Shown: in pieces, positions 2,012 to 36,286 of the stretch
Layout: each line of letters starts with the position of its first letter
How positions within the stretch are numbered: the stretch's first letter is position 1
Origin: Candidatus Natronoplasma sp.
Lineage (GTDB): Archaea; Thermoplasmatota; Thermoplasmata; Halarchaeoplasmatales; Halarchaeoplasmataceae
Direction: 5' to 3'
Length of the DNA stretch: 39,384 nucleotides
NCBI GenBank assembly: GCA_048621055.1
Contig: JBMCXO010000002.1
Location: forward strand, 1 to 39,384
Position numbers and translations under genes: made by a program
The notes under the pieces: model-generated
The model's database searches: none
The model's input: the letters and a program-made list of their open reading frames with translations, nothing else
What the model was told of the DNA's origin: nothing

Positions 2012-5000
2012 ATGAGAGAACTTGTAGAGGCTTTTTTTGAGGAATCAAACATAGTAGGTCATCATATTGAATCGTACAACGATTTTTTACCTACGGCCGA
2101 TAATCCAAGCAACAGAGCACAAAAAATAATCGATAATATACGGATAGGATTCGCCGAAGGTGGATGGGGGAATATCAAGCTCGATCCTGAAAAAGTGGAC
2201 GGTGAGGACATACAGATAAGGGTCGGAAGAAAAAGAACTGAAGACGGTAGGATCCCTCCAAATTCTGAACCAACGATCCGGATAAAAAAACCGACCATCA
2301 AAGAAGCCAGTGGTTCTGAACATAAACTCACGCCTCACGAGGCAAGACTGAGAGACCTATATTACGATGCAGAACTAGAGATGAAATTCAGCATTATACG
2401 AGAGGGAATAGAAGAAGAGCCAAAATGGATATCTGTGGGTAGACTGCCCGTGATGATAGGATCTAAGGTATGCAACCTTCATCTTGATAATCTGGACAAA
2501 ACTGTAGAAGAAGTGCTCAATGTGGATCCAGAGAGCAAAGAAGTTACGGAGATGTCCAGAGATGACAAGGTCACGGAACTCGGTGAAGATCCTGTGGACC
2601 CTCAGGGATATTTCATCATAAGCGGAACTGAAAGGAACCTGATGGCCGTGGAGGATATGGCGACCAACAGAGTGATGTGCGAGATAAACGAAAAATACGG
2701 AAGAAAACATGAAGTGGCGAAAATATTCTCTCAGAGACACGGTTTCAGGGCTATGACGAGACTCGAAAGGAAAAAAGACGGTATGATAACCGTTTCGGTT
2801 CCTTCGGCTAGAGGCGATATCCCCCTGATCATCTTGATGAAAGCCCTAGGGATGGAAAGGGACGAGGAGATCTACAATTCTATAGTAACAGAGCCCGAGA
2901 TGGCAAGTCTAGTGTTCGCCAACATTGAGATGTGCCAAGAAGAAGAAGAGTACTCTCCAGAAGGAGTGTATGACCAGGAAGATGCTATGGCCTATCTCGA
3001 AAGGAAGTTCGCCACAGGACAGGCAGAAGAATACAGGCGTAGAAAGATAGAATCGATCTTAGACAGATCGTTGCTGCCTCATCTTGGAGACAAAAAAGAG
3101 AACCGGATGAAAAAGGCAGTGTTCCTGGGAAGGATGGCTAGAGCGATACTCGAACTCTATATGGGGGAGAGAGAATCTGACGATAAGGATCATTACGCTA
3201 ACAAGAGGTTGAAACTCGCAGGCGATCTGATATCAGATCTGTTCCGAGTCTCGGTCGTAAATCTGCTGAAGGACCTAAAATATCAACTCGAGAGGAATTT
3301 CAGAAAGAAGGGAGATATCAGGATCAAATCATCCATCAGGCCTGATCTTCTAAGCAACAAATTACAGCATGCTATGGCAACAGGAAATTGGGTCGGCGGT
3401 AGAACTGGTATTTCTCAACTGTTGGATCGGACCTCCAATATGGCGACTATAAGTCATCTTAGGAGGGTCAAATCACCTTTGTCTAGGAGTCAACCCCATT
3501 TCGAAGCTAGAGAACTTCATCCCACACATTGGGGCAGACTATGTCCCAACGAAACACCAGAAGGACAGAACTGCGGTTTAGTAAAAACCTCAGCGCTCAT
3601 GATCAACGTTTCGAAGGGTGAAGAACCGATGGAAGTCCGCTGGAAACTCCATGACGTGGGTCTTAAAGAGATGGGCCAGGGATCTGAAGCAACCACGAAG
3701 GTATATCTCAACGGAGATCTTGTTGGAGTCGTTAAAGATCCTGAAGAATTTGTTAAGAATGTGAGATACGAAAGGAGAAAAGGAGGCATCTCTGGGCAAG
3801 TCAATCTGAGATACGACGAAAAAATGAACGAAGTGATAGTGAACTCCGACGAGGGCAGAGTACGAAGACCCCTCCTGGTAATAGAAGATGGAAGCGTTAA
3901 TTTCAGCACTGATGTTATAGAAGAACTTGAACAGGGTAAGAGAAACGTCGACTCTCTCTTCGAAGATGGCTTTGTAGAGTGGATAGACGCTGAAGAAGAA
4001 GAAGATATTTACGTCGCGCTTTATCCCTTTGATCTACCGGACAAATGTAACGAATGCGAGGAACCTTTATCCGAGGCAGATTTAAAATGGACCAATATGG
4101 GTTCAGGAGAAGATATAGCTAAAATAGAGTGCAGGAGATGCGGTGGAAAGATGGAAGTCGAATCTAATATCGAAGAAGAACATACCCATATGGAAGTCGA
4201 CCCGCTTCTTATGCTCGGCGCTTCGACAGGTTTGGTTCCCTTCGCAGAACATAATGCCGCTCCACGATGTTCTATGGGAGCTAACATGATGAAGCAGTCC
4301 CTGGGATTGAACGCATCGAATTACAGGACTAGGCCAGATACGAGAGAACACCTTCTTCACTACCCTCAGTTGTCGCTTATGCAGACGGAAACTATGGATC
4401 TGGTCAACTACAATAAAAGACCCGCAGGACAAAACTTTGTCGTGGCGGTCATGCCTTATCACGGTTACAATATGGAGGATGCTATCGTGATGAATAGGGC
4501 CGCGATAGATAGAGCCCTAGGTAGATCCACCTTCTTTAGAACTTATACTGCCGAAGAAAGAAAGTATCCCGGAGGTCAGGAGGATGAATTTCAGATCCCT
4601 GACCCTGACGTTAGAGGAGCTAGAAGCGACCAGCAGTACAGCAAATTAGATAAGGACGGGTTGATAAGCCCCGAAACCAAAGTAGATGGAGGTGAAGTCA
4701 TCGTAGGTAAAACCTCACCACCTAGATTCCTTGAAGAGGACACAGACCTGATGGCCCCTCAGAAAAGAAGGGAGACCTCTGAGATAGTTAGACCTAGAGA
4801 GAAGGGATGGATAGATTCCATCATGCTCACAGAATCAGAAGACGGGAGTAGAGTAGTCAAAACGAAGATAAGAGACCAAAGGATCCCTGAGCTCGGTGAT
4901 AAATTCACTTCTAGGCACGGTCAAAAAGGAGTTATAGGTAAGATGGTAGAACCCGAAGACCTGCCGTTCACCGAGGAAGGCGTTGTTCCTGACCTTATAG

Positions 5001-5631
5001 TTAATCCACACGCGATGCCATCGAGGATGACCGTAGCCCACATGCTGGAGATGCTTGGGGGTAAAGTCGGATCTTTAGAAGGTAGATTCATCGATAGTAC
5101 ACCTTTCAGCGGTGAAAGCGAAGATGCTCTGAAAGAGGCACTAAGAGAAGCTGGTTTCAAATCCAACGGCACCGAAATCCTTTACGATGGAAGGAGCGGA
5201 GAGATGCTTGAAGCGGAGATATACATGGGAGTCATCTATTACCAAAAATTGCATCACATGGTATCTAACAAACTCCACAGCAGGTCTAGAGGACCGGTTC
5301 AGATACTGACGAGGCAGCCTACCGAGGGGCGCTCTCGTAAGGGCGGCTTGAGGTTCGGTGAGATGGAGAGGAACTGTCTCATAGGCCACGGCACGGCCAT
5401 GGTCATAAAAGATAGATTACTCGATCAGTCAGACGGCACGACTGAATACATCTGCGGCAATCCAGACTGTGGACATATAGCCATACTTGACAGCAACGGA
5501 GAGTTGAGATGTCCCGTCTGTGGAGAAAAGTCAGATGTATACCAGATCCAGACCAGTTTCGCTTTCAAACTTTTGATGGATGAATTGAGATCGCTTGGAG
5601 TCACCATGCGTTTGAATGTGGAGGATCAAAG

Positions 5632-5635
<4 letters not shown>
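2012..5635 (+). CDS. rpoB: DNA-directed RNA polymerase subunit B (Rpo2), unsplit, with lineage-specific insertions
   Basis: 1207 aa. Conserved blocks include GYFIISGTER, RLKLAGDL, CPNETPEGQNCGLVK, MPYHGYNMEDAIVMN, SRHGQKGV, NPHAMPSRMT, FGEMERNCLIGHG and the C-terminal zinc ribbon CGNPDCGH...CPVCGE. The B'' and B' parts are fused in one ORF. Confidence 0.97.
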
Positions 5636-9755
<4,120 letters not shown>

Positions 9756-22982: not shown

Positions 22983-23011
22983 CCTTTTTCTAAATCCGTT
23001 ATCGAAAAGTG

Positions 23012-24649
23012 ATGGACAGAGATAAGTTCAAAATTTTCTATTGGTTAATCTCCATCCTAAAGAGCATCGTCAAAAAACCTGGAGAGATAGCTAAAGGGAT
23101 GCGGCAAGAAGGAGTCTATCCTTTCCTTAAAGACAGGATGGGCAAGCCCGGAAAAAACGAGATACTAGAAGGGAACGTTATTGCTGTGATGTTCAAATTG
23201 GGATGGCCGATGATGATCGCTACTTTTTTGAGAACTCTGTACAATCTCATAGATACTTTTTGGTTGGGTAATATTCCAAATCCAGCAGTAGCAGAATATT
23301 CGGTAACTGCTGTCGGCCAAGGATGGACCGTTGTGTTCATGATGATGTCAATTGAGATGGGTTTCGGCATCGCAGCTTTAGCTTTAATATCTCAGTATAC
23401 TGGTCAAAGAAATTTTGAAGAGGCTGATCGAACAGCTGGACAACTTTATTTCATAGCGATAGCAGCCTCATTATTAATAGGGATCATCGGATATTTTTTG
23501 ACACCTAGTTTCATGAATATCTTGACTAGTGGGGAACAGGAACTTGCCTATTACGGGACTCAATATATTCAGATAATATTTTTGGGTCTCCCATTCATGT
23601 TCTTATTCTTCGCATTCATGTATACCCTGAGAGGGTGGGGAGATACTATAACTCCAATGAAGATAACCGCCATCTCAGTATCTTTGAATATGATTATCAA
23701 TCCCTTTCTTATATTCGGTTCCGGGAGCGTGATAGCGTTAGGATCCCTTGAAATCACAATACCCACTATTTTCGGATATTCAATTCCTCGGTTGGGAGTG
23801 AGAGGCGCCGCTATCGGAACCGTAATGAGCAGGGGGATCGGTTCTATATATGCAACCTACCTGATGTTCTCAGGGAAGGTGGGTTTGAAACTAAAATTAT
23901 CCTATCTGAAACCGCACATATCCCGATTAAAAAGTTTATTGAATATAGGTATCCCCGCCGGAATCGGAAGATTCGGCACTTCTATTGGGTTCATAATCTT
24001 ATGGGCTGTTATCTACAGATTACCAAATCCTGAAGTCGCAGGAGCAGCATACAGCGTGGGTAATAGGATATTGAACATCACATTCCTAATAATGGGTGGC
24101 TTCGCCATGGCTATCAGCACGATGGTAGGCCAGGCTCTTGGTGCAGACGATGAAGAGAGGTCTGAAGAAGTCGCAGTAAAAGGGTTTATAGCCGTTGCGG
24201 GTCTGATGTTGGTCTTCACGGGGTTACTGTTCGCTCTGAGAAATAATCTTATCATGATATTCATACCTGAATCCCCAGAAGTTATCGCGGAAGGAGCAAA
24301 CTTTTTGGCGATCTTTGCCCTTGCAATGCCATTTTTTGGCATCTTTAGGGCTGTGACTTCACTCTTAGGAGGTTCTGGCCATACTAGACTTCAGATGGGT
24401 CTGAATCTGACTAGGCTTTGGGGTTTGAGGCTTCCCTTTGTATTCCTTTTTGCCATATTCCTCTCGATGGGATCCACAGGCGTTTGGACCGGTATGGCAC
24501 TCAGCAATGTAGTAGGGTTCATTTTAGCTTTGGGTGTTTATAAGACTGGATGGTGGAAAGAGAAGGTGATAGAAGATAAACCTAGGCCTAAACCGAGCAT
24601 GGACTTGGATGAAGATGAACCTAGGAGGGATAGAAATACTGAAAGCTAA
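23012..24649 (+). CDS. MATE family multidrug/compound efflux transporter
   Basis: About 545 aa, 12-TM-like pattern. N-terminal LEGNVIAVMFKLGWPMMIATFLRTLYNLIDTFWLG is the MATE signature. Hydrophilic C-terminal tail. Confidence 0.9.
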   Translation: MDRDKFKIFYWLISILKSIVKKPGEIAKGMRQEGVYPFLKDRMGKPGKNEILEGNVIAVMFKLGWPMMIATFLRTLYNLIDTFWLGNIPNPAVAEYSVTAVGQGWTVVFMMMSIEMGFGIAALALISQYTGQRNFEEADRTAGQLYFIAIAASLLIGIIGYFLTPSFMNILTSGEQELAYYGTQYIQIIFLGLPFMFLFFAFMYTLRGWGDTITPMKITAISVSLNMIINPFLIFGSGSVIALGSLEITIPTIFGYSIPRLGVRGAAIGTVMSRGIGSIYATYLMFSGKVGLKLKLSYLKPHISRLKSLLNIGIPAGIGRFGTSIGFIILWAVIYRLPNPEVAGAAYSVGNRILNITFLIMGGFAMAISTMVGQALGADDEERSEEVAVKGFIAVAGLMLVFTGLLFALRNNLIMIFIPESPEVIAEGANFLAIFALAMPFFGIFRAVTSLLGGSGHTRLQMGLNLTRLWGLRLPFVFLFAIFLSMGSTGVWTGMALSNVVGFILALGVYKTGWWKEKVIEDKPRPKPSMDLDEDEPRRDRNTES

Positions 24650-24657
24650 GATTAAGA

Positions 24658-24677
24658 GTGATAAGACTTATTATCAC
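24658..24677. promoter_or_regulatory. Inverted repeat GTGATAA-GACTTA-TTATCAC between the MATE stop and the MarR start (candidate MarR operator)
   Basis: Read directly. 7-bp arms, 6-nt spacer, 22 nt upstream of MarR ATG 24699. GAGG SD at 24688-24691. Confidence 0.4.
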
Positions 24678-24698
24678 AGAATTTTATGAGGCTATTAT

Positions 24699-25127
24699 AT
24701 GACAGAAGAACACTCCGAGGATTCAATCCACAAGCTTTATCAGAGAGTCTACAAAAATTTGATCACATTAATACGGTCTGAATTGGAACCCTACGATTTC
24801 AACCGAGGAGAATTCCCTCTTCTTTTCAAGTTGCTAAAAGGAGGAGACGGAGTAACTCAAAAAGAAATCTGTGAAAAACTTCACGTATCGAAATCCACCA
24901 CCTCTAAGATAATAAAGAGTCTTGTCGAGAAAGGATATCTCAGGAAAGAGAAAGACCCAGAGGACAAACGTGCCTCTAGGATTTTTCTCACCGATAAAAA
25001 GGAGGAGATCGAAGATCTGATAAAAGAGATAGACGAAAAAGCCGAAAACAAAATGTTGAAGGGTTTTGATGATGAGGAAAGAAAAAACTTGAAAGCTTAT
25101 TTAGAGCGTATACTTGACAACCTATAA
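24699..25127 (+). CDS. MarR family transcriptional regulator
   Basis: 142 aa. GVTQKEICEKLHVSKSTTSKIIKSLVEKGYLRKEKDPEDKRASRIFLTDKG-like wHTH with the MarR wing motif (D-x-R). Confidence 0.85.
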   Translation: MTEEHSEDSIHKLYQRVYKNLITLIRSELEPYDFNRGEFPLLFKLLKGGDGVTQKEICEKLHVSKSTTSKIIKSLVEKGYLRKEKDPEDKRASRIFLTDKKEEIEDLIKEIDEKAENKMLKGFDDEERKNLKAYLERILDNL

Positions 25128-25224
25128 TTATTTAGATTTTCTATTTTAAAAAAGGCACTGAAAGCGACCTATCCCCGCACAAACTATATCTATCATAAAC
25201 CAGATATACAAGAAGGGAGATCAG

Positions 25225-26655
25225 ATGGCAAATCAAGATATCTCTAAAATAATACATATAAATTCCGGTTTTCAGAAGATGTTAGAGGGAGAGAAAATTA
25301 TCTGTTTAGTAGACGGTCAGCATTATCCTCCAGTAACCAAGAATACGTTAGAAGTGTTGAGGAAGATTGGGGCAGAAATAAAAGCCCTTATCTTTCTGGG
25401 CGGAACTGAAAAGGTCGAGGATGCAGAGGAAGAACTTGGAGAGGCTGACATAGATATTTTCATGAGTTGTAGTAAAGAACAGCTTCCTATACAGAACTTA
25501 CGAAAGGCGATAAGTAAGTATGATCCAAAAATCGTCGTCGATCTATCGGACGAACCGGTGGTCGACTACGGAGACAGATTCGAGATCGCCTCATCAGTCC
25601 TTCAAGAAGGAGCAACTTACATGGGAGCGGATTTTTTCTTTTCCCCTCCAAATGAATTGAACGTTTTAGAAAAACCGAGTTTATCAATAATCGGAACCGG
25701 AAAAAGAGTCGGTAAGACCGGGGTCAGCGTTTCGATAGCTAGAACGCTGAAAGGAAAAGGGCATGAACCAGTTATCGTATGCATGGGCCGAGGAGGTCCT
25801 CCGGAACCAGATTACATCGATCCAAAGAAGATCGCTATGAACGCAGATACTTTATTGAAAGTCGCAGAAAAAGGAGGACATGCTGCATCAGATTATTGGG
25901 AAGATGCTCTGTTAGCCCAAGTCTCTACAGTGGGATGTAGAAGATGTGGTGGCGGGATGGCGGGAAATCCGTTCTCCTCTAATGTGATCAAAGGAGCTTT
26001 AAAAACAAACAATCTGAAAGAAAATCTGGTCATAATGGAAGGTTCTGGTTCTACTTTCCCACCTGTCAAAACAGAAGCAAAGATAGTTATCATTGGAGCT
26101 TCCCAGCCCCTAGATAACATACTTGAATATTTCGGACAGTACAGGATAAATATATCCGATCTAGCGATAATCACCATGTGTGAAGAACCTATGGCTAGCG
26201 AAGAAAAAATAGAGGATATCGAGACAGGGATAAATGAGTTGAATCCAAATATCGATATCGCTCGCACCATTTTTAGGCCTCAGCCTCTCAAAGACATAAC
26301 GGGAAAGAAAGTCTTCGTCGCCACGACCGCACCTGAAGATATCCTGCCAAAGATAATGGAACACATTGAAACTGAAAAAGGAGCAGAGATAGTTGGTCAC
26401 TCCAATAAGCTTTCTAATAGAGAGGCACTGAGAAAAGACTTGAACCGGGGACTAAAAGAAGCCGAAATGCTTTTGACAGAAATCAAGGCAGCCTCAATAG
26501 ACGTTGCTGGAAAAAGTGCTAAAGAAAAAGGTGCCGAGATAGTTTTTATGCATAATGAATCAATTCTAGTAGGTGGAACTGTCGAGACCTTCGAAGAGGC
26601 AGTATTAGATGTCTATGATAAAGCTATGGAAAGATATGGGGGTCAAAATGATTGA
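25225..26655 (+). CDS. cpgS: Cyclic 2,3-diphosphoglycerate synthetase (candidate)
   Basis: 476 aa. N-terminal ICLVDGQHYPPVTKNTLEVL...FLGGTEKV and P-loop-like IIGTGKRVGKTGVS fit my recollection of the cDPG synthetase family. Size and 8-nt overlap with a 2-phosphoglycerate kinase gene support the call. Confidence 0.65.
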   Translation: MANQDISKIIHINSGFQKMLEGEKIICLVDGQHYPPVTKNTLEVLRKIGAEIKALIFLGGTEKVEDAEEELGEADIDIFMSCSKEQLPIQNLRKAISKYDPKIVVDLSDEPVVDYGDRFEIASSVLQEGATYMGADFFFSPPNELNVLEKPSLSIIGTGKRVGKTGVSVSIARTLKGKGHEPVIVCMGRGGPPEPDYIDPKKIAMNADTLLKVAEKGGHAASDYWEDALLAQVSTVGCRRCGGGMAGNPFSSNVIKGALKTNNLKENLVIMEGSGSTFPPVKTEAKIVIIGASQPLDNILEYFGQYRINISDLAIITMCEEPMASEEKIEDIETGINELNPNIDIARTIFRPQPLKDITGKKVFVATTAPEDILPKIMEHIETEKGAEIVGHSNKLSNREALRKDLNRGLKEAEMLLTEIKAASIDVAGKSAKEKGAEIVFMHNESILVGGTVETFEEAVLDVYDKAMERYGGQND

Positions 26656-27532
26656 AGTTACCAAGGAAGGAACGAAATATCCCTTTTCCAAGGGTATATT
26701 GGCGAGGTCTCTTTCCATCACGGGACTGACCCTTGATCAGATATATGAGATTGTAAGAGATATAAATAAAAAGATTCAAGAAGGGGAGCAAAACACGATA
26801 AGCTCCAAAATAATAAAAAGGATGGTGAGAAGAGAACTCTTAGATAGAGGATATGAAGAGGAAGAAAAGTTTTACAGAGTCTCTAGAAAGATACGATATC
26901 TAGATAAACCTCTACTGGTCTTGATAGGTGGTGGTGCAGGTGTTGGAAAATCCACAATATCTTCAGAACTAGGCGTGAGATTAGGTATAAACAGGATCGT
27001 CGGAAGCGATTCTGTCCGTGAGATAATGAGAGAGATGCTACCCTACGAGGTCATACCAGCATTGCACGAATCGAGTTTTACCACCCATAAAGCTGTGGAA
27101 GCTTCTTTCGTAAAAAACAAGTTGATATATGGGTTCGACCAGCAGGTAAGACTTGTGAGTGTTGGATTGAAAGCCATCATAGAAAGAGGTATCAAAGAAG
27201 GTCTGAATACGATCATAAACGGCGTTCACTTGGTTCCTGGATATCTAGATATAGAAAGTGAAAAAGGCAGCTACGCCTTCCAATACGTTTTAGATGTCTC
27301 CGGCCAGAGTGAACATGAAGAAAGATTCAAAATGAGAGCCGAGGGGAGCCACAGAGATCCAGATAGATACATCGAAAATATTGACAATATAAAGAAAATC
27401 CAGGAATACAATATACGTCAGGCGGAACAGAACGACGCTCGAGTTCTCAACAACTCAGATATAGAATCCACGATAAGAGAGATCATGACAGATATAATAA
27501 ATAAATTGGAGCCGGTGATAGAGAATGAATAA
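26648..27532 (+). CDS. 2-phosphoglycerate kinase (ATP-cone + P-loop kinase)
   Basis: The start is chosen at ATG 26648 (overlapping the cpgS stop) rather than 26609. N-terminal ATP-cone-like MIEVTKEGTKYPFSKGILARSL, then P-loop LIGGGAGVGKSTISSELGVRLGINRIVGSDSVRE, typical of 2PGK (COG2074-type). Confidence 0.8.
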   Translation: MIEVTKEGTKYPFSKGILARSLSITGLTLDQIYEIVRDINKKIQEGEQNTISSKIIKRMVRRELLDRGYEEEEKFYRVSRKIRYLDKPLLVLIGGGAGVGKSTISSELGVRLGINRIVGSDSVREIMREMLPYEVIPALHESSFTTHKAVEASFVKNKLIYGFDQQVRLVSVGLKAIIERGIKEGLNTIINGVHLVPGYLDIESEKGSYAFQYVLDVSGQSEHEERFKMRAEGSHRDPDRYIENIDNIKKIQEYNIRQAEQNDARVLNNSDIESTIREIMTDIINKLEPVIENE

Positions 27533-27956
27533 AGCTGCACCAAATTTTTACGACGTAGATATGCCTATACGCTCTTTTATTACAAAACGTCTGATAGGAG
27601 TTAGGTCCAAAAGCAGTGTTCAAGAAGCCGCTAAGAAGATGGTGGAGTTCAATACGGGATCACTTGTAGTTATCGAGGATGAGGATATCGTGGGGTTCAT
27701 TACAGACGGTGATATAAAGAAAAAAGTCGTGGCTGAAGGTTTGAAGACTGATATGCCAGTTAAAGAGATAATGGTGAAAGAACTGATTACAGCAGATATC
27801 AGCTCAACTATCAAAGATGTACTAGAGATTATGGCAGAGAAGAACATACAGCATATTTTGATAGATGAAGATGATGATATAGTGGGTATAGTGACTTTTA
27901 GAGATCTGATAGATATCAAAAGGCAAAAGCTCGAAACTTACATCTCGAGGGAATAA
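27525..27956 (+). CDS. CBS-domain pair protein
   Basis: 143 aa, two CBS repeats (VVIEDEDIVGFITDGDI and LIDEDDDIVGIVTFRDL). 8-nt overlap with the 2PGK stop. Confidence 0.85.
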   Translation: MNKAAPNFYDVDMPIRSFITKRLIGVRSKSSVQEAAKKMVEFNTGSLVVIEDEDIVGFITDGDIKKKVVAEGLKTDMPVKEIMVKELITADISSTIKDVLEIMAEKNIQHILIDEDDDIVGIVTFRDLIDIKRQKLETYISRE

Positions 27957-27957
27957 A

Positions 27958-29451
27958 ATGAGGATACTTCATATATCTGACACCCATATCGGCAAAAAAG
28001 ACCATTATAACAAAGAATCTCTGAAGATCGCTTTAAAAGAGCTTGAAGACGACGATCTAGATATGCTGATCCATTCTGGAGATCTCACACAGGATGGTAG
28101 CCTGAAACACTATGAAAAGGCAAAAAAAATTTTTGATAAAATAAGCATACCACATATCATAATCCCAGGAAATCACGACAAGAGGAGTGGAGGACTTTCT
28201 CTCTTCAAAGATCATTTCGGTTCGCCGAACGGTGTATTTGAAAGTCAAAAGGCGGTAGTAATCTATGTTGACAGCGCAGTTCCAGATACGGATATCGGAC
28301 GGGTAGGGATGGTTAAATACGATATGATAAAGGAGGCTCTTGCCGAGTACTGTAACAAATCGATAAAGATAGTCGTCCTGCACCATCACACTGTCCCTAT
28401 ACCAAAAGCCGGAAGGGAACGTAACGTCCTTTCCAATGCTGGAGATCTTTTGGAACTGTTTTTAAAGGGAGACGTAGACCTAGTATTGTCAGGACATAGA
28501 CACTATCCCAATGTTCATCGTATAGAAAACACTGTTTTTGTGAACGCTGGAACGGCTTCAGATAAAAAAACGAGATACGGCGACATAAACTCGTACAACT
28601 TGATAAAAATCGAGAAAAAAACATTGACAGTTAGAACCAAGAGGATCGACGGATCTAAAGAAAAAAAATGCTTTCCGAGAAAAGATAAAAGGGTCTTTTA
28701 CGACTTTGGAGACAAAATATTCAGGGTTGTCCATACCTCGAACACTTTTGTTTCTTCATCTCCAAAATTTCTCCAAACCCATTTTTTAAACGCCCTCAAA
28801 ATCATAAATTCACTAGATTGTGACCTAACTATACATTGTGGAGGGGTTGTGGAAGAAGGTATAAATCAAAATTATGAATTGGCTAAAACCTACATGGAAA
28901 AGTTCAATGTGCCGATAATTTACACACCTGCTGGAAGAGACATAAATTATCTAGGTTATGAGCTTTTTAAAGAATATTTTGGAAAGATGCTGCAGTCTTA
29001 TAGCAACGAAGAGGTCCTTTTCAGAGGGGTGTCTTCTGCCCAGTATGATTCTCCGGAGGGCTACATAGGAGAGACGCAGAAAGAAGAATTATTCAACGAG
29101 CTCGAAGATCAAAATCGATCTTTTAAATCCGTTTTCCTTCATCATAATATACTTCCGATACCTCACGCTAGAGAGAAAGGACTCCTTGAGGACAGTGGAG
29201 ATTTTCTCAGGGAAATAGTGAACAAGAGAATCGACCTAGTGTTGACCGGTACCTCGTCCCATCCATCGGCGATGAAGATAGGAGAGACTGTCGTAGTCAA
29301 TGCCAACTCCATGAGCAGCGTTTACCAGAGAAGCAGATACGGTAATTCATTCAACGTGATAGACATATACGAAAAGGCGATAGTGGTTTACGAAATAAAC
29401 AGTCTGTGGGGAAACAGAAAGATACTCGGTGTGTGGGATCGGAACAGCTAA
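27958..29451 (+). CDS. Tandem calcineurin-like metallophosphoesterase (intact N-terminal domain + degenerate C-terminal copy)
   Basis: 497 aa. Domain 1 has the full motif set: HISDTHIG, GDLTQDG, GNHDK, LHHH, SGHRH. Domain 2 aligns colinearly but has HTSNTF, HCGGVV, PAGRD, LHHN, TGTSSH. It starts 2 nt after the CBS stop. Confidence 0.85.
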   Translation: MRILHISDTHIGKKDHYNKESLKIALKELEDDDLDMLIHSGDLTQDGSLKHYEKAKKIFDKISIPHIIIPGNHDKRSGGLSLFKDHFGSPNGVFESQKAVVIYVDSAVPDTDIGRVGMVKYDMIKEALAEYCNKSIKIVVLHHHTVPIPKAGRERNVLSNAGDLLELFLKGDVDLVLSGHRHYPNVHRIENTVFVNAGTASDKKTRYGDINSYNLIKIEKKTLTVRTKRIDGSKEKKCFPRKDKRVFYDFGDKIFRVVHTSNTFVSSSPKFLQTHFLNALKIINSLDCDLTIHCGGVVEEGINQNYELAKTYMEKFNVPIIYTPAGRDINYLGYELFKEYFGKMLQSYSNEEVLFRGVSSAQYDSPEGYIGETQKEELFNELEDQNRSFKSVFLHHNILPIPHAREKGLLEDSGDFLREIVNKRIDLVLTGTSSHPSAMKIGETVVVNANSMSSVYQRSRYGNSFNVIDIYEKAIVVYEINSLWGNRKILGVWDRNS

Positions 29452-29461
29452 CATTTAGTTC

Positions 29462-32400
29462 TCAAGCTCTTTCTAGATATATATCAAACCTGACACCGCC
29501 AAGTTCGGAATCTTTGACTTCCAAACGCCCGTCATAACTATCGATCACCTTTTTGACCAGATACAGCCCAAGACCGGAGCCTCCAGATTTGCCTTGTTTG
29601 AAGCCTTTTTCAAGTATCTTTTCCTTTTTTTCATCAGGTATGCCCACTCCATCATCTTCAAATATGATCAAACCTTTATCATCTTCAGATAGTACTCTAA
29701 TCCTAATTTTTTCACAACCTGAATGCCTGATCGAGTTTTCGATAAGATTGAAAAATAGTGTCTCTAATAAAGGACCAGCTTTGACTTGAATTTCTTCTCT
29801 TTCTACTTCTAGATCGATATCCATATCCTCTAGATGGGTTTCGTATTTTGATAGAACTTCTTCTCTTAGAGGTTCTATAGGGACCTCACGGATATTCTCC
29901 TGCTCCTCCACCCTTCTGAGTTTGTCGACTTTTTCTATTATCTCTTGAGTTTGATTTATCACTTTGACAGTTTTATCCACCAATTCCTCATCTTCGTATG
30001 TTTCCTTCAAAAGTTTCAAGTAAGCTTTTGCTATTTGTGTTTTGTTACCCACATCATGGCAGATCATAGAATGTAGAAATTCTTTTCTCTCCTCAACTTC
30101 CTTCCTATCGGTTATATCTCTAATAACTGCGATGATCCGAGGTTCATCACCTATATCGTATCTATTCAAGCTTACTTCAGCATAGAATTCATCGCCGTTA
30201 TTCTTCTTATGAACCCATTCGAAAAAAGGGTCTTCTCCTTCAAAAACTTGCTTTATCTTCTCTAGAGCTTTTTCTTTTGACCGTCTACCGTCAGGTTGTT
30301 CCTCAGGAGAGAAGTGCCACGGCTTTTTACCGATGATCTCCCCACGATCACAGCCGAACATCTCTTCAGCCTTCTCATTACAGTCTATGAATTGTTCACG
30401 GTCCATGATGATTATGGCATCGTTCGCCGACTGAAATATGGTTCTATATCTTTCCTCACTCTTAAGGAGTTGCCTCTCCATCTCCTTCATTTCGGTTATA
30501 TCCATGATGATGCCTTCAAGATAAACCTCATCTTCATCATTCTTGGCTCCCTTTCCTCTCTCCCAGACCCATCTTATCTCCCCCTCAGCCGTTTTAATCC
30601 TGTAAATTATCTTATATCGTTCTTTCTTTTCGACAGCTTCGTCGATCGTACTTCGGACTTTTTTTCTATCTTCAGGTAAAATGAGGTCTATATAGGTGGT
30701 CTCTTTATTATCTATCAGATCTTCTGGATAATATCCGGTCACTTCCTTACAACCTTCACTCATAAATTTCATCGTGTAGTACTCATCGTTCAAGCACCGA
30801 AAGGCGACTCCAGGAGCGTTACCTAGAAGATTTTGAAGTAGGCGATATTGTTCTTCCAGTTCTTCCTCTGCCTTTTTCCTCTCCGATATCTCCCTTATAT
30901 TGCACTGTATGACTTCTTCGCCGCCGGCCCGATAGACGTTGCTTACGAACTCTACAGGTACCTTCTCACCATTTCTAGATTCGAGCGGTAAATCTTCATA
31001 ACGTACATATCCTTCCTCTCTAAGCTCATCGAACCTTTCCTTGTTCTCACATATCTGTTCAAAACTACCTATCTCCCACAGTTTACCTTCCTGAAGCTCA
31101 TCCAAAGAATAACTGAGAATATCTCTTATGTACGGATTCGCATCTTTGATCTCGCCCGTTTCAGAATTCAAGATCAAAATACCGTCTTTAGCGCTCTCGA
31201 AGAGTCTTCTGTATCTTTCTTCGCTCATCTGAAGGGCCTCTTCTGTCTGCTTTTGTGCGGTGATATCCACCAAGTAGCCAAGATAATATTTGACCTCGCC
31301 GTCCTCCCTGATTATCTTGGTGTAGTCCTTGACCCAGATGGTTTCTCCATTCTTTTTTATCAAACGGTATGGTCTGTGATCTATTCTATCGGCTCCGATG
31401 TTGAGATGTCTTTCGACCTCTCTTTTCAATTGGACAAAATCATTTTTCGGAAGAATATCAGCATAACTTATATCGCCGCTGATCATCTCTTCCTGAGTAT
31501 ACCCCAAAAGATATTCCACGTTCGGTGTGACGTATACTATCGGATAGTTTTCTTTAGCTCTCCATTTGAATAGGGTAGTTGAGCCTTCCACAAAGAGATC
31601 ACGTTCCTCTTCAAGCGTTTTTTCCGCTATCATCCTTCTTCTCGCAAGAGATAGATCATCGACAACCTCTTCTAAAAGTTCTATTTCTTTTCTCGAGAGG
31701 AATCTATCTGGTCTGTGACATACTATCAAAAATCCAAATAACTCCTCATCAGAGGTCATCGGCACCAAAACCGTATGATGATCGATATCTTCTTCAGGAT
31801 AATCGCAAAGGCTGCAGTAATCTTTCATACCTTCGATCATTACAGATGAACGCGTCCTCATAGCTTCCTTCACACATTCAGGGGCATCGCCCTCGCCTTC
31901 TTTCGTTAACTCCCAAGCCCAATGCTCGTGCTCTCCTGAACTCGCGAATGGTTTTATCTTTCCGCTATCATCATCGAAAAGAGCTATCTCCACATTCAGA
32001 TAACCACCGGTTTCTAACAGAACGTCACATGACTTCTCGATAAGAGTTGAAAATTTATCTTCTTCAAAGATCAATCTACCGATATTACGGATCGACATCA
32101 GTAGTGAATTGATCTCCACCAGCTCCTCTGCAGTCTCTTTATGTCTGACCTCCTGAGCTATCGCATCCGCTAAGATACCATACCGTGACTCCAGGTTCCC
32201 TTCTTTCATGACATACCGATCCGCACCTAGATTAAGAGCATCCATGGCTACATCTTCCCTACCCCTTCCGGTAAATATTAGGAATGGTATGGAATTCTCC
32301 CTTTCCTCCCGCAGTTCTCTCAAAAATTCTATTCCGTCCATCTCAGGCATCATGTAATCAGAAACAATGGCATCGTAATGATCAGCCTCAAGGAGCTCTA

Positions 32401-32524
32401 GAGCTTTTTTAGCCGATTCTACGGTAAATACTTTCAACTCTTCCTTTTCCTCTTCTAAAAATTCTTTAGCCTGATCCAAAAGACTAGTATCATCATCAAC
32501 GAGCAATACCCTCATATTTCCCAA
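29462..32524 (-). CDS. Hybrid sensor histidine kinase: N-terminal receiver, GAF, four PAS domains, HisKA-like + HATPase_c
   Basis: 1020 aa. REC (MRVLLVDDD...DYMMPEMDG...K), a Cys-containing GAF-like block, four PAS repeats each closing with D/R-ITE/D-RK, H-box HDVGNK, and G-boxes DDGVGIP and GSGLGLY. The start could be ATG 32524 or ATG 32515. Confidence 0.9.
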   Translation of the reverse strand: MGNMRVLLVDDDTSLLDQAKEFLEEEKEELKVFTVESAKKALELLEADHYDAIVSDYMMPEMDGIEFLRELREERENSIPFLIFTGRGREDVAMDALNLGADRYVMKEGNLESRYGILADAIAQEVRHKETAEELVEINSLLMSIRNIGRLIFEEDKFSTLIEKSCDVLLETGGYLNVEIALFDDDSGKIKPFASSGEHEHWAWELTKEGEGDAPECVKEAMRTRSSVMIEGMKDYCSLCDYPEEDIDHHTVLVPMTSDEELFGFLIVCHRPDRFLSRKEIELLEEVVDDLSLARRRMIAEKTLEEERDLFVEGSTTLFKWRAKENYPIVYVTPNVEYLLGYTQEEMISGDISYADILPKNDFVQLKREVERHLNIGADRIDHRPYRLIKKNGETIWVKDYTKIIREDGEVKYYLGYLVDITAQKQTEEALQMSEERYRRLFESAKDGILILNSETGEIKDANPYIRDILSYSLDELQEGKLWEIGSFEQICENKERFDELREEGYVRYEDLPLESRNGEKVPVEFVSNVYRAGGEEVIQCNIREISERKKAEEELEEQYRLLQNLLGNAPGVAFRCLNDEYYTMKFMSEGCKEVTGYYPEDLIDNKETTYIDLILPEDRKKVRSTIDEAVEKKERYKIIYRIKTAEGEIRWVWERGKGAKNDEDEVYLEGIIMDITEMKEMERQLLKSEERYRTIFQSANDAIIIMDREQFIDCNEKAEEMFGCDRGEIIGKKPWHFSPEEQPDGRRSKEKALEKIKQVFEGEDPFFEWVHKKNNGDEFYAEVSLNRYDIGDEPRIIAVIRDITDRKEVEERKEFLHSMICHDVGNKTQIAKAYLKLLKETYEDEELVDKTVKVINQTQEIIEKVDKLRRVEEQENIREVPIEPLREEVLSKYETHLEDMDIDLEVEREEIQVKAGPLLETLFFNLIENSIRHSGCEKIRIRVLSEDDKGLIIFEDDGVGIPDEKKEKILEKGFKQGKSGGSGLGLYLVKKVIDSYDGRLEVKDSELGGVRFDIYLERA

Positions 32525-32741: not shown

Positions 32742-32773
32742 CTACTAAAAATTAATGTGAGTTGGGGAAACAG

Positions 32774-35700
32774 ATGCGAGTGAAGGTGAAGTTCTTCTCC
32801 GTGGCTGTAATACTCCTTTTGGCATCTTTAAATTTGTCTTTTGGACTCGGAACAGGAGCACCAGAAAGTGAGAGTTTAATAGATGTAGATGAAAATGAGC
32901 TAGCGAGACCTGTAGATGAAAATTCTACCCTTACATCGGAGGAATATCCTTTCAAAGAGGAGTATCCTTCTGTGAATCAACTCTATGAATGGTATGAGAA
33001 TTTAGAGGAGGAATTTCCTGAGCTGGTCGATAAGCATCATTATGGGGAATCATACGAAGGGAGAGATCTCTGGGTATTGGAGATCACCTCGGATAATGAT
33101 ACTGTTGTAGATGAAAAACCGGCAGTGCTTATCGACGCGACTATCCACGCTAGAGAATGGTCAACCACTCAGGTAGCGGCTTACTTCACTTGGAGACTCC
33201 TAGATGAATACAACACAAATGAGACCATCAATTGGGTCGTGAACAATAGAAAGATCTTTGTAGTTCCGATGGTGAATCCTGATGGGTATATTCACGACGG
33301 AAATGGAACATTAGGGCAAAGAGAATATTGGCGTAAGAACAGGAACGATTCGATCCCTAAAGGTAAAGTCGGTGTGGATCTAAACAGGAACTGGGATTAC
33401 CTTTGGGAGAATGGTGAGGATGATCCTTCTATGGAAACGTACAGGGGGGAGGCTCCATTCTCTGAAGCCGAGACCAAACATCTTAAAGAATTCATACTTG
33501 AAAACGATATAGATTCCTACCAAAACTTGCATTCTCACTGGGGGGCATTATTGATCCCCTCTACCAATATGACCAACCCTACACCACATGATGATTGGTA
33601 CAGAGGTACAGCAGAGCACATGACTTCAATGACTACGATGTTGGGAGAAGACGAACAGTACTCATATGGTCAGCCTCATGAAGAGATAGGTTATGGTGCT
33701 CCAGGGGCAGCTGATAATTGGGTCTATGACGAGATTGGTGCCCAAGCATATACATACGAAATCTATACAGGAGAGTGGGAAGACTCCAAGCATGGATTTT
33801 ATCCTGAAGAAGATAAGATAATGGAGATAAATCAGGATGTTGATGATTCGCTCATCTATCAAGCTAGAGTGGCCGATACGGACCTAGGTGATGGTGAAGA
33901 GATAAAGCAGCCTCCAGTGCCTTATCTAGTTTACGGCACATTGGAGGATGAAGAGGGAAAAGCTCATTCTGACGTTGAAATAGAGGTGAAAAATCGAGAG
34001 ACCGAGGAAACGATTTACACGCACACAGACAGAAATGGTCATTATGAAATCAACCTCGCCGATCTCGAAGAAGGTTATCAGGAAAGAGATCTCTTCACAA
34101 TCGAGATCGAGCCAGGAACCACTAGATTGAATTTTGAAGTGGATGATAGTTGGGGTCAAAGGCTGGACCTTGAGTATTCTGAGAGTGCTCAAGTAACCAC
34201 CGAAGGCTTTTCAAATTTGACGTTGGATTCTGTCAATTTATTGGGTGATGTCACGCTGGCGGATGAGGGTTCTGTTGACGCCTATTTTGAGTACGGGATA
34301 ACAGGAGAAAAAGAATGGGAAGAGAGTAAAGTAGAAGAGATAAATGAAAATCGCACCTATAATATAGAGCTAGATGAAGACGACCTTCAAGTAGGTGAGG
34401 AGTATGAATTCAGAGCGGTGATCGAGTGGAATAATGAAATCAATAGAGGAAGGTCTATCACTTTCGTAGTGGATGAATATGAACTAGACATCGACTCCTT
34501 TGAAGGAGGCGAGGTAAAACTACCCGGAGAGGAGGGGTTTGACTATATTTATGGTAGAGAAGTAGAGATCGAAGCTTCAGCTGAGGAGGGCTTCGAATTC
34601 ATCAGGTGGATCGGAGATGTCGAGATGGTGGGAGATACAGAATCCAAAAGCACATCCGTGAAGATGATGAAGGATCTTAAGATAACCGCCCTATTCTGGG
34701 CAGGAGAAGGTACCGAAAATAATCCATATATCATTCAAAATGTCTATCATCTACCGGAGATACATGAAAATCTAGATGCACATTTCGAGCTTGCGGATGA
34801 TATAGATGCTAGTGAAACCAAAGATTGGAACGATAGAGATGGCTTTGAACCTATAGGGTATATGGAGGAAGGATTTACCGGCACTTTAGAAGGCAAAGGT
34901 CATGAAATCCAAGGCCTCCACATCAATCGAAGTGATGAGATGGGAGTTGGAATATTCGACGCGATAGGTGAAGACGGCGAAATAAATGATCTAAGACTAG
35001 TTGATCTGGAAGTGACAGGTCAAATGCAAGTCGGAGGTTTTGCCTCGATCAATGAGGGTAAAATAAAAAATTCCTCTGCAACAGGTGTAGTGATCGGAAA
35101 AGGAATGTATGGAGCTGGTGGACTTGTATCAGATTGTTATGGAGATATAGAAGACTCGTACTTTGAAGGCAGAGTCAAAGGGAATGAGATGGTAGGAGGC
35201 CTTGTAGCGTATATGGGAGGCTGGAGGGAGGAGGCTATACCTTCAAATGTGAAAAGATCTTACGCTCATGGGAATGTGAGTGGAGATGAAATCGTTGGAG
35301 GATTGGTGGGATGGAACGGCGACGGAGGAAGTATCTCCCAATCTTATGCAGCAGACAACATCAGCGCTAGACAAGGACATGCCGGAGGTCTAGTGGCGAT
35401 GAATTTCGCTAGTGTGACTAACACTTATTCTACCGGAACAGTGAAGGCGAGCACTCACTGTGGTGGGCTCATCGGAGAGAGTCAAGGAAACGTTTTTTAC
35501 TCCTACTCTACCGCTAAAGTGGCCAAAAACGGACGTAATGGAGGATTGATAGCTGCATCAAACGATGTTGTCATGAAGTCATATTGGCATATATTCTCTT
35601 CCGGTGTTGAGAGAAGTGCAGGTGGTAGAGGTATGACAACAGGAGAAATGATAGGAGAGAACACTGAATTCACTATGGAAGGTTTTGATTTTGACGAAAT

Positions 35701-36286
35701 TTGGGATGTGGAAGAAGAGCCATACTCTTATCCCTACCTTTCATGGCAAGATGAAGATAACATCCCTTACGTTCCCTATGAACTTGAGCATGAATTGACC
35801 ATCGAAGTGGATGGAAGAGGTTCAATAGAACCTGAATCCTCGACCTATCTTTACCCTGAAGGTGAAGAGGTTTCCATAGAAGCCATTTCTGATGAGCTTG
35901 TCGAATTTAGCCACTGGGAAGGAGATGTGCCTGAAGGGTATGAAAAAGATGAAGAAATTACCATCGTTATGGAAGATGACGTGGAAATAACCGCTAATTT
36001 TGAATATGAGCCTTGGTTCCAGGGATTGGTTTCCTTGATAGTATTGTCTGTCGTTATTGGTGGCGGAATTAAGATTTACAAAAGGTACAGAAAGGAAGAA
36101 GAGTCAGATGAAGAGATTTTGGTCCCTGAGGAATTAAAAGCTCGTGGAGACACGAAGATCGAAACGTGTCCTGAGTGTGATGAAGCAGCCCTGGTGATCT
36201 ACGAAGACGGATCGGCCTTATGTGAAAACTGTAGTCACGCAGAGAGGGGTAGAGAGCTGGGAGAAGAAGAGGAAGAGATGGTTTAA
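32774..36286 (+). CDS. Large mosaic surface protein: signal peptide, M14 zinc carboxypeptidase, beta-rich spacers, two B-repeat-like domains, GLUG-motif repeat array, C-terminal TM, cytoplasmic zinc ribbon
   Basis: The track start is TTG 32762; ATG 32774 gives MRVKVKFFSVAVILLLASLNLSFG. M14 motifs are TIHAREWST, NPDGY, NRNW and LHSHWG. Seven or so GGL(V/I)(A/G) GLUG repeats lie at about 35030-35570. F-x-x-W-x-GDV B-repeat motifs occur twice. TM LVSLIVLSVVIGGGIKIY, then CPECDE...CENC. Confidence 0.8.
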   Translation: MRVKVKFFSVAVILLLASLNLSFGLGTGAPESESLIDVDENELARPVDENSTLTSEEYPFKEEYPSVNQLYEWYENLEEEFPELVDKHHYGESYEGRDLWVLEITSDNDTVVDEKPAVLIDATIHAREWSTTQVAAYFTWRLLDEYNTNETINWVVNNRKIFVVPMVNPDGYIHDGNGTLGQREYWRKNRNDSIPKGKVGVDLNRNWDYLWENGEDDPSMETYRGEAPFSEAETKHLKEFILENDIDSYQNLHSHWGALLIPSTNMTNPTPHDDWYRGTAEHMTSMTTMLGEDEQYSYGQPHEEIGYGAPGAADNWVYDEIGAQAYTYEIYTGEWEDSKHGFYPEEDKIMEINQDVDDSLIYQARVADTDLGDGEEIKQPPVPYLVYGTLEDEEGKAHSDVEIEVKNRETEETIYTHTDRNGHYEINLADLEEGYQERDLFTIEIEPGTTRLNFEVDDSWGQRLDLEYSESAQVTTEGFSNLTLDSVNLLGDVTLADEGSVDAYFEYGITGEKEWEESKVEEINENRTYNIELDEDDLQVGEEYEFRAVIEWNNEINRGRSITFVVDEYELDIDSFEGGEVKLPGEEGFDYIYGREVEIEASAEEGFEFIRWIGDVEMVGDTESKSTSVKMMKDLKITALFWAGEGTENNPYIIQNVYHLPEIHENLDAHFELADDIDASETKDWNDRDGFEPIGYMEEGFTGTLEGKGHEIQGLHINRSDEMGVGIFDAIGEDGEINDLRLVDLEVTGQMQVGGFASINEGKIKNSSATGVVIGKGMYGAGGLVSDCYGDIEDSYFEGRVKGNEMVGGLVAYMGGWREEAIPSNVKRSYAHGNVSGDEIVGGLVGWNGDGGSISQSYAADNISARQGHAGGLVAMNFASVTNTYSTGTVKASTHCGGLIGESQGNVFYSYSTAKVAKNGRNGGLIAASNDVVMKSYWHIFSSGVERSAGGRGMTTGEMIGENTEFTMEGFDFDEIWDVEEEPYSYPYLSWQDEDNIPYVPYELEHELTIEVDGRGSIEPESSTYLYPEGEEVSIEAISDELVEFSHWEGDVPEGYEKDEEITIVMEDDVEITANFEYEPWFQGLVSLIVLSVVIGGGIKIYKRYRKEEESDEEILVPEELKARGDTKIETCPECDEAALVIYEDGSALCENCSHAERGRELGEEEEEMV

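Follow-up and report, generated by a model that had tools for sequence, protein, structure and literature searches.

Cyclic 2,3-diphosphoglycerate (cDPG) is a trianionic solute that reviews still call exclusive to hyperthermophilic methanogens and that is under development as an industrial "extremolyte". The two enzymes of its synthesis, a 2-phosphoglycerate kinase (2PGK) and a cDPG synthetase (cDPGS), are already known, and both steps are well characterized. The breakdown of cDPG has been an orphan activity since 1992: Methanothermobacter thermautotrophicus is reported to have a membrane-bound cDPG hydrolase, without assigned gene, that opens cDPG to 2,3-diphosphoglycerate (2,3-DPG) and that K+ and inorganic phosphate (Pi) inhibit, and this conversion is the only orphan step of the pathway (Sastry et al. 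1992, via PMC10690619 and PMC1224877). Our literature searches, here and below confined to openly searchable sources with subscription-only papers outside them, found no published cDPG hydrolase gene, in agreement with what a first-pass annotation of the DNA studied here had stated.

In this study, we analyzed a stretch of 39,384 nucleotides from the Thermoplasmatota archaeon Candidatus Natronoplasma sp. (contig JBMCXO010000002.1; hereafter "the window") whose forward strand carries an operon-like unit of four genes encoding a cDPGS, a 2PGK-like protein, a stand-alone CBS-pair protein, and an internally duplicated, calcineurin-like metallophosphoesterase (MPE). The last three of these genes recur together, frequently headed by the first, across archaea and bacteria, and we propose that the MPE is a CBS-gated hydrolase of a phosphoanhydride or phosphoester of the pathway, most likely the one converting cDPG to 2,3-DPG. 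With the substrate read from gene context, we give this proposal about an even chance of being correct.

Compared to cDPG biosynthesis in Methanothermus fervidus, the window offers a full-length cDPGS with identical Walker A motif and ligand residues as well as a kinase whose best match is the 2PGK model, but its host is a mesophilic-looking, salt-adapted Thermoplasmatota archaeon, and its genes share one operon with CBS and phosphoesterase genes, whereas methanogen-type loci carry cDPGS alone. The M. thermautotrophicus hydrolase catalyzes the reaction proposed here, and its regulation by K+ and Pi amounts to control at the degradative step; that enzyme is, however, reported to be membrane-bound and without assigned gene, while the window MPE is predicted to be soluble and belongs to a family not seen beside methanogen cDPGS genes. 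In fold and in five metal-binding motifs, the MPE resembles class III phosphodiesterases (PDEs) such as GpdQ of Enterobacter aerogenes, Rv0805 of Mycobacterium tuberculosis, and CpdA/Icc, and its two halves probably mimic the dimeric architecture of GpdQ and Rv0805, but it is only 16–22% identical to these enzymes, is duplicated with one dead site, and differs in its Arg-rich subfamily motifs and cDPG context. The CBS-PPases among family II inorganic pyrophosphatases are regulated by an adenylate-sensing CBS pair that controls a P-O-P hydrolase, which is the logic that we propose for the window, although in the window the CBS pair forms a polypeptide of its own and catalysis would fall to a calcineurin-like fold rather than a DHH one. 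Finally, haloarchaeal operons of cDPGS, 2PGK, and a PHP-domain protein likewise have a metal-dependent phosphoesterase translationally coupled downstream of 2PGK, but this enzyme is of the PHP family and has no CBS partner.

Synthesis genes, CBS protein, and duplicated metallophosphoesterase

The first open reading frame (ORF1, cpgS; 25,225–26,655, plus strand, 476 amino acids) aligns with the M. fervidus cDPGS structures (PDB 8ORK and 8ORU) over nearly its full length including the unique N-terminal domain (residues 21–471 against 3–456 of 8ORK; E=1.4e-141), is about 55% identical to true cDPGS, and contains the Walker A motif GTGKRVGKT. All residues listed as binding 2,3-DPG, ADP, or Mg2+ in the M. 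fervidus enzyme (E45, K46, K145, R146, K149, T150, D208, E305, T353, E404, and K406; PMC10690619) are identical in ORF1, where the structure alignment maps them to E62, K63, K160, R161, K164, T165, D223, E320, T368, E419, and K421, respectively, and they are invariant or nearly so in an alignment of ORF1 homologs. No strong model for ORF1 was found in our local copies of the Pfam and NCBIfam profiles; the precomputed Pfam match recorded for the protein is CpgS_N (PF27272). Judged by its sequence, ORF1 is a bona fide cDPGS. An assignment as an ArcE-type arginine synthetase was rejected, with ArcE only distantly similar and every cDPGS ligand residue kept in ORF1; its resemblance to cDPGS has been called "low", and ArcE is used as an outgroup (PMC11032458).

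ORF2 (26,648–27,532, plus strand, 294 amino acids) combines an ATP-cone domain with a P-loop kinase domain (Pfam matches ATP-cone, 34 bits, and AAA_18). Its best match is the NCBIfam "2-phosphoglycerate kinase" model NF003259, aligned full-length (residues 2–292 of 294 against 6–297 of 306) with 297 bits, which is below the curated equivalog cut-off of 343. Because related family members include mevalonate-3-phosphate 5-kinase, the specificity of a 2PGK is not readable from homology alone, and we call ORF2 2PGK-like on its homology and its pairing with cDPGS, which 2PGK directly follows in archaeal and bacterial loci. An alternative ATG lies earlier at 26,609, and the N-termini of homologs match the start at 26,648 (MIEVTKEG, MIQVTKED, and MLKIEKDD). 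In Ca. Methanohalarchaeum thermophilum (L077:4812-8309), the 2PGK following cDPGS lacks the ATP-cone domain, a separate 151-amino-acid ORF with a weak ATP-cone match lies around 700 bp upstream, and neither an MPE nor a CBS gene was found at the locus.

The stand-alone CBS-pair protein (ORF3; 27,525–27,956, plus strand, 143 amino acids), which we propose as a regulatory subunit, matches Pfam CBS with 83.6 bits and two repeats. The ribose-phosphate motif of CBS domains is defined as G-h-h-[ST]-x-x-[DN], and ORF3 conserves it as GFITDGD (residues 57–63) and GIVTFRD (residues 121–127); its matches to CBS-PPase models are weak. Across phyla, the protein is 43–60% identical and ends right at the stop codon in an invariant C-terminal tail, LETxISRE (27,930–27,956 in the window; T138, I140, and E143), that may be a docking peptide. 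The same tail is found in the ortholog PH0107 of Pyrococcus horikoshii, an uncharacterized structural-genomics entry (PDB 2YZI) on which our literature search returned nothing relevant.

ORF4 (27,958–29,451, plus strand) encodes the MPE, which consists of an N-half (residues 1–249; 27,958–28,704) and a C-half (residues 250–497; 28,705–29,451) that are 33% identical to each other (E=5e-39). Enzymes of the calcineurin-like superfamily draw their di-metal ligands from five motifs, DxH, GD, GNH[DE], H, and GHxH. By this signature, the N-half is a member: it matches Pfam Metallophos (PF00149) with 80 bits, displays the motifs as D8-x-H10, G41-D42, G71-N72-H73-D74, H143, and G179-H180-x-H182, and its ligands D8, H10, D42, N72, H73, H143, H180, and H182 are invariant in 84 of 84 homologs, which marks it as the predicted catalytic domain. 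The C-half lacks this signature, with seven of eight ligands exchanged for residues that are just as fixed (N262, F/L/Y264, G296, G/A326, R327, T432, and S434) and H396 alone retained, and gave no Pfam match when searched by itself. It is homologous by descent, has by its sequence no functional metal site, and is proposed to be a pseudo-enzyme domain for allosteric control or partner binding. This degenerate duplicate is the slightly more conserved half (mean pairwise identity of 59% versus 56% among the 84 homologs), and the protein as a whole has many invariant Arg, Lys, and His residues. Those Arg and Lys residues conserved around the N-half metal site (R76, R115, R153, R155, K204, and R206) would suit a small polyanion as substrate. 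With a pI of 7.7, the MPE is also the least acidic soluble protein of the window, where the median pI is 5.1.

An AlphaFold2 model of the MPE (pLDDT 92.7, pTM 0.91) has as its closest solved folds in Foldseek the dimeric PDEs GpdQ and Rv0805, each spanning one half; the protein is likely an intramolecular pseudo-dimer in which one site is live and the other dead. It does not pass as a class III PDE of the CpdA/Icc type: the CpdA model NF008359 scores 80.9 bits against a cut-off of 225, Rv0805 and GpdQ reach E=1e-4 at the low identity given above, and the "CpdA/Icc" labels on MPE homologs in databases are generic. In a neighbor-joining tree, the topologies of N-halves and C-halves mirror each other, which points to one ancient duplication. 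The second domain of Thermococcus orthologs (L054-L058) is less degenerate, with HNGD or HCGD, PGHND, and TGHGGN in some sequences, as if caught partway through the loss of its active site. Relatives of tandem length (490–560 amino acids) extend down to around 30% identity, so that the duplication reaches beyond the clade analyzed here.

The four ORFs are joined by an 8-nt overlap between ORF1 and ORF2 (ATGATTGA), an 8-nt overlap between ORF2 and ORF3 (ATGAATAA), and a 1-nt spacer between ORF3 and ORF4, and they form a single operon-like unit. Coordinates, common direction, and junctions had all been read correctly in the first-pass annotation, which had also, as our analysis supports, taken the genes for one operon. 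Its assignments hold as well, in that ORF1 is borne out as a cDPG synthetase by structure match, CpgS_N, and conserved ligands, ORF2 as 2PGK-like, ORF3 as a CBS pair, and ORF4 as a calcineurin-like phosphoesterase. Only the label of a tandem metallophosphoesterase needs amendment: the internal duplication is real, while the metal site is confined to the N-half and the second domain is catalytically degenerate.

Linkage of the genes across archaea and bacteria

A scan for the tandem MPE with one genome per species returned 75 loci, among them 66 full-length orthologs, from around 15 phyla. The archaeal loci come from Thermoplasmatota (including Ca. Saliniplasma as well as genomes assembled from metagenomes (MAGs) of Great Salt Lake and of soda lakes), Hadarchaeota, Aenigmatarchaeota, Methanomassiliicoccales, and Thermococcus, and the bacterial ones from Planctomycetota, Acidobacteriota/Aminicenantes, Bradymonadales, Bipolaricaulota, Cloacimonadota, Spirochaetales, Ca. 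Mcinerneyibacterium, and Balneolaceae. With a length of around 500 amino acids, ORF4 homologs retain at least 50% identity even between very distant phyla, and the sizes of the contigs that carry them coincide with those of the cDPGS matches. When neighbors were counted by tblastn, a CBS gene lay directly upstream of the MPE at all 59 assessable loci, usually 4–5 nt away, while 2PGK was present at 53 of 55 loci (50 in canonical position) and cDPGS at 39 of 49. This arrangement is far beyond chance, since the same gene order and the same 4–5 nt spacing of CBS and MPE genes recur in dozens of unrelated lineages.

One close relative, a Great Salt Lake Thermoplasmatota MAG (L002) with the same MATE-MarR and histidine-kinase flanks as the window, illustrates how the first gene can be lost. 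Comparison of L002:8548-8720 with positions 25,100–25,260 and 26,600–26,720 of the window revealed that the entire cDPGS ORF has been excised precisely and in frame, leaving the promoter block and the first eight cDPGS codons (MADQHTDK), now fused in frame to the 2PGK start. The deletion point is marked by AAAAT[A/G]AT, a short repeat found on either side of cDPGS in the window. Given these counts and this clean deletion, the conserved core is 2PGK-CBS-MPE, and cDPGS is its frequent first gene. The first-pass annotation had linked the CBS and phosphoesterase genes to cpgS and 2PGK; this linkage is strong, with the qualification that the tightest partner is 2PGK rather than cDPGS.

We also surveyed 80 metagenome loci centered on cDPGS. 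The complete four-gene module was found at 8 of them and a module cut by the contig end at another 3, whereas cDPGS stood alone at 46 and was accompanied only by 2PGK at 2. Single loci showed cDPGS-2PGK with a convergent MPE (1/80) or the haloarchaeal cDPGS-2PGK-PHP arrangement (1/80). At the remaining 19 loci (among L118-L158), a single-domain MPE of 265–280 amino acids lies immediately upstream of cDPGS, with 2PGK downstream in 12 of the 19 and a CBS gene in none. These single-domain MPEs are 36–45% identical to the N-half of the window MPE (E around 1e-40 to 1e-49), share with it the subfamily motifs GNHDxR, GRxG, and GRERN, and form a clade that is sister to the tandem N-halves.

The single-domain family is large and includes proteins of Rubrobacter xylanophilus DSM 9941, R. 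taiwanensis, and Ca. Aquicultor. When the MPE was taken as the starting point, cDPGS came a few bases later at all 4 loci that we looked up (L159:5001-7163 in the complete R. xylanophilus DSM 9941 genome CP000386, L161, L169, and L170), where an MPE of around 270 amino acids is followed 0–60 nt later by cDPGS. Downstream of the MPE-cDPGS pairs at these loci and at the 19 metagenome loci comes either a GlpX fructose bisphosphatase gene or 2PGK with transaldolase. This gene content suggests cDPG metabolism in Actinomycetota, for which, as for cDPG in Rubrobacter specifically, our literature search found no report.

In haloarchaea, a phosphoesterase unrelated in fold to the MPE occupies its slot. 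This cDPGS-2PGK-PHP operon was found in three genomes (L076:8001-11281, L082:2792-5875, and L164:5001-8099) and encodes a PHP-domain protein of 259 amino acids coupled after 2PGK; in L164, the junctions are an overlap of 4 nt and a gap of 1 nt. Altogether, three different architectures join a metal-dependent phosphoesterase to cDPGS or 2PGK.

Several further loci were recorded in the course of these surveys. P0128 represents another full four-gene module, P0217 is a stand-alone cDPGS in an unrelated MAG, and a small MPE sister clade from WOR-3/TA06 is unlinked to cDPG genes; around the unlinked MPEs of the sister clade (WOR-3/TA06, L067, and L070), the neighboring genes showed no consistent or informative context. 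Two tandem-MPE copies lie on different contigs (L029 and L045) of one Aminicenantes MAG, Bin_127. A complete pstSCAB-phoU phosphate-uptake operon is located immediately upstream of the four-gene module in a single lineage (L166:1-9252, also L167 and L168), and PstCA is encoded 3 kb upstream of the module in a Hadarchaeota MAG (L013:2824-3986). These pst neighbors fit a role of the module in phosphate storage but are sporadic, and phosphate uptake was rejected as a conserved feature of the module with pst genes seen only at these four loci.

Candidate functions of the metallophosphoesterase

In the reading that we favor, the four translationally coupled genes would both build and control a pool of cDPG. 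2PGK would convert 2-phosphoglycerate to 2,3-DPG, cDPGS would use ATP to close 2,3-DPG to the cyclic pyrophosphate cDPG, and the N-terminal di-metal center of the MPE would open cDPG at its P-O-P bond and so regenerate 2,3-DPG, which could return to glycolysis via reverse 2PGK or a phosphatase step. The C-half with its fixed set of Arg and His residues would act as the second protomer of a pseudo-dimer and probably as a regulatory site binding an anion or partner. Made stoichiometrically just before the hydrolase, the CBS protein would gate it by adenylate or ionic state and thereby prevent a futile cycle of co-expressed synthesis and breakdown. Our analysis itself speaks to gene identities, domain anatomy, and linkage, and the substrate, the reaction direction, the contact of CBS protein and MPE, and the physiological role are inferred from these. 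Metallophosphoesterases cleave phosphoanhydrides and diesters, and we rank cDPG hydrolysis first because the partner enzymes share 2,3-DPG or the cyclic anhydride, the chemistry of the MPE fits, and cDPG opening is the only orphan step of the pathway.

Published expression data from Pyrococcus yayanosii may bear on this assignment. Under pressure stress, the proteome of this archaeon showed 2PGK (PYCH_14390) up 9- and 14-fold and cDPGS (PYCH_14400) up 4.3- and 3.3-fold, while a 474-amino-acid hypothetical protein abutting 2PGK (PYCH_14380) fell to 0.15 and 0.2 (p around 5e-4; PMC4890121, Supplementary Table S3). In its position, its size, and its 3'-overlap with 2PGK, the PYCH_14380 gene agrees with the convergent CBS-MPE / 2PGK-cDPGS arrangement of Thermococcus loci (L056-58), and its fall while 2PGK and cDPGS rise is the opposite regulation expected of a degradative antagonist. 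Orthologs of the MPE are carried by Thermococcus barophilus MP (ADT83426.1) and CH5 as well as Thermococcus spp. M39, LS2, and SY098; the 90% cluster of these proteins includes isolates such as T. barophilus and no P. yayanosii member. The proteome supplements for T. eurythermalis list cDPGS without its neighbors.

A number of observations weigh against cDPG as the substrate. Phosphoesterase neighbors are missing from 46 of the 80 cDPGS-centered loci, and no MPE was found near methanogen-type cDPGS genes. Seen from the MPE, cDPGS is absent from the examinable flank at 10 of 49 loci. Among these ten are all Balneolaceae, represented by the isolates Rhodohalobacter sp. 8-1 and Gracilimonas sp. 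Q87, together with several Thermoplasmata, where a search confined to the flanks saw the 2PGK-CBS-MPE trio with no cDPGS within 10 kb; in L002, the trio stayed intact after cDPGS was lost. The core partner of the MPE is thus 2PGK and not cDPGS, which would fit an enzyme directed at 2,3-DPG at least as well. The MPE contains no hydrophobic segment (no 19-residue window with a Kyte-Doolittle value above 1.0, compared to 2.41 for the MATE transporter as control), as opposed to the membrane-bound M. thermautotrophicus hydrolase, so that the MPE, if it is a cDPG hydrolase, would not be the same protein as the methanogen activity. No CBS-MPE fusions were seen among the 150 best representatives, and co-transcribed synthesis and breakdown would need the post-translational control that we assume. 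Furthermore, PYCH_14380 is a probable MPE ortholog by position and size only, and the cDPG activity that we ascribe to the MPE family is a prediction from gene context.

Part of this evidence would be explained if the MPE were a 2,3-DPG phosphatase releasing Pi and 2- or 3-phosphoglycerate, with 2PGK, CBS protein, and MPE setting the level of 2,3-DPG and cDPGS as an option. This metabolite is the only one common to both partner enzymes, the trio without cDPGS occurs at the loci just described and survives the clean deletion in L002, and some single-domain MPE-cDPGS pairs (7/19) have no adjacent 2PGK. However, such a phosphatase would run an ATP-wasting cycle with 2PGK alone and compete for the substrate of cDPGS where both are present, the cDPGS-less trio was counted at the level of the locus, and the orphan reaction known from biochemistry runs from cDPG to 2,3-DPG; we consider a 2,3-DPG phosphatase unlikely. 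Still less probable in our view is a signaling pair in which the MPE degrades a messenger sensed by the CBS protein (cAMP, 2',3'-cyclic nucleotides (2',3'-cNMP), c-di-AMP, or Ap4A) and the synthesis of the osmolyte is controlled with cDPG itself untouched. The nearest characterized relatives of the MPE are indeed the PDEs CpdA, Rv0805, and GpdQ, many sources label its homologs CpdA/Icc, and the CBS protein combines canonical ribose-binding motifs with weak similarity to ProV and to the c-di-AMP-binding CbpB. Yet the CpdA score of 81 bits falls far below the cut-off and identity is low, the single-domain MPEs are coupled to cDPGS without any CBS gene, and the unrelated PHP phosphoesterase in the same slot of haloarchaeal operons points to a metabolic step rather than to a particular messenger.

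That the more conserved half of the MPE is the degenerate one, that the degenerate MPE folds Vps29 and GAP50 are among its structural neighbors, and that tight translational coupling suggests complex formation could also be understood if the MPE were a protein phosphatase, or a scaffold or pseudo-enzyme partner, that modulates 2PGK or cDPGS. We judge this quite improbable in view of a metal site that is invariant in all 84 N-halves, single-domain relatives that appear fully catalytic, and a subfamily resembling small-molecule diesterases and not PPP phosphatases. Weak NCBIfam matches to anti-phage phosphoesterase and CBS models would be in line with the CBS and MPE genes being an unrelated hitch-hiking cassette such as a defense system, but the conservation of order and spacing across archaea and bacteria and the three architectures joining a phosphoesterase to cDPGS or 2PGK make this extremely improbable. 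The NCBIfam defense model scores 81.6 bits on the MPE against a cut-off of 420, and a defense system was rejected with PADLOC giving a generic match to MPE residues 1–75 only and nothing for the CBS protein.

A wider version of the proposed cDPG hydrolase function would hold that the CBS protein and the duplicated MPE are the missing, allosterically gated cDPG hydrolase, that the single-domain form of Rubrobacter and other Actinomycetota and the PHP enzyme of haloarchaea are its analogs, and that cDPG (or 2,3-DPG) is a widespread metabolite and no peculiarity of hyperthermophilic methanogens. This generalization is tentative, and we would sooner expect it to fail in some part than to hold as a whole. 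If true, halophilic archaea and bacteria, and likewise piezophilic Thermococcales and actinobacteria that tolerate desiccation, would actively turn over cDPG or 2,3-DPG as a K+ counter-ion and a store of phosphate/energy, and a cassette of three to four genes would have spread this trait by horizontal transfer.

For the salt-lake archaeon of the window, cDPG might be a K+ counter-ion and a phosphate/energy reserve and not a thermoprotectant. The first-pass annotation had called such a salt-adapted setting unusual for cDPG, and the setting itself is supported by the moderately acidic proteome of the window (median pI of 5.1) and by the closest relatives, Thermoplasmatota MAGs that come from soda lakes and the Great Salt Lake; it is less unusual than presumed, since cDPGS genes are not rare in halophiles and are carried by haloarchaea and Methanohalarchaeum. 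The pathway would be distributed more widely than thought, with its genes common in archaea and bacteria of hypersaline lakes where a trianionic solute would pair with cytoplasmic K+.

Our literature searches found nothing relevant on cDPG in Haloplasmatales or Natronoplasma and no description of the association with a dedicated MPE (in two architectures), of the CBS partner, of the PHP analog, or of how widely the module occurs among halophiles and actinobacteria. The locus and its relatives provide a testable candidate gene family for cDPG turnover and the best candidate yet for the missing hydrolase, whose identity would be relevant to cDPG production strains where turnover limits yield. 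Cultured carriers, some of them genetically tractable, include T. barophilus MP, R. xylanophilus DSM 9941, Rhodohalobacter sp. 8-1, and Gracilimonas sp. Q87, and the module comes with a built-in candidate regulator of which an ortholog has already been crystallized (2YZI). As a case of enzyme evolution, the MPE appears to record a duplication after which one active site was lost and the dead domain was kept under strong selection.

Upstream signals and neighboring genes

The spacer ahead of ORF1 comprises 97 nt (25,128–25,224) and contains, all on the plus strand, a distal A/T-rich TATA-like run (TCTATTTTAAAAAA; 25,140–25,153), a promoter-proximal block (CACAAACTATATCTATCATAAACCAGATAT; 25,178–25,207), and a Shine-Dalgarno-like GGGAG (25,215–25,219) 5 nt before the ATG. 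The CACAAACTATATCTATCATAAACCAGATAT block is common to the window and its relatives L001 and L002, although L002 lacks the first gene, whereas the distal run is partly kept in L001 and absent from L002; AAGGGAG upstream of ORF1 is invariant in all three. Because it is conserved with both closest relatives, the CACAAACTATATCTATCATAAACCAGATAT block is more likely than the distal run to represent an archaeal BRE/TATA promoter. Reading the sequence thus confirmed the spacer with TATA-like run and Shine-Dalgarno motif and the convergent downstream gene that had been noted at first pass, except that the conserved promoter-proximal signal is not the run taken for a TATA box. Matches to sigma-70-like promoters and terminators inside the operon were no commoner than in shuffled sequence.

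The module is flanked by genes for a MATE transporter and a MarR regulator (23,009–25,127) and by a convergent gene for a receiver/PAS hybrid histidine kinase of 1020 amino acids (29,462–32,524) that ends at 29,462, 10 nt past the ORF4 stop. Synteny of these flanks is limited to the close Thermoplasmatota relatives L001, L002, and L171, with MarR absent in L171, and they are lineage-specific neighbors outside the conserved module. Elsewhere in the window (2012–9755 and 32,762–36,286) lie large co-directional ORFs of 1207, 887, and 487 amino acids and a very acidic ORF of 1174 amino acids with a pI of 4.17.

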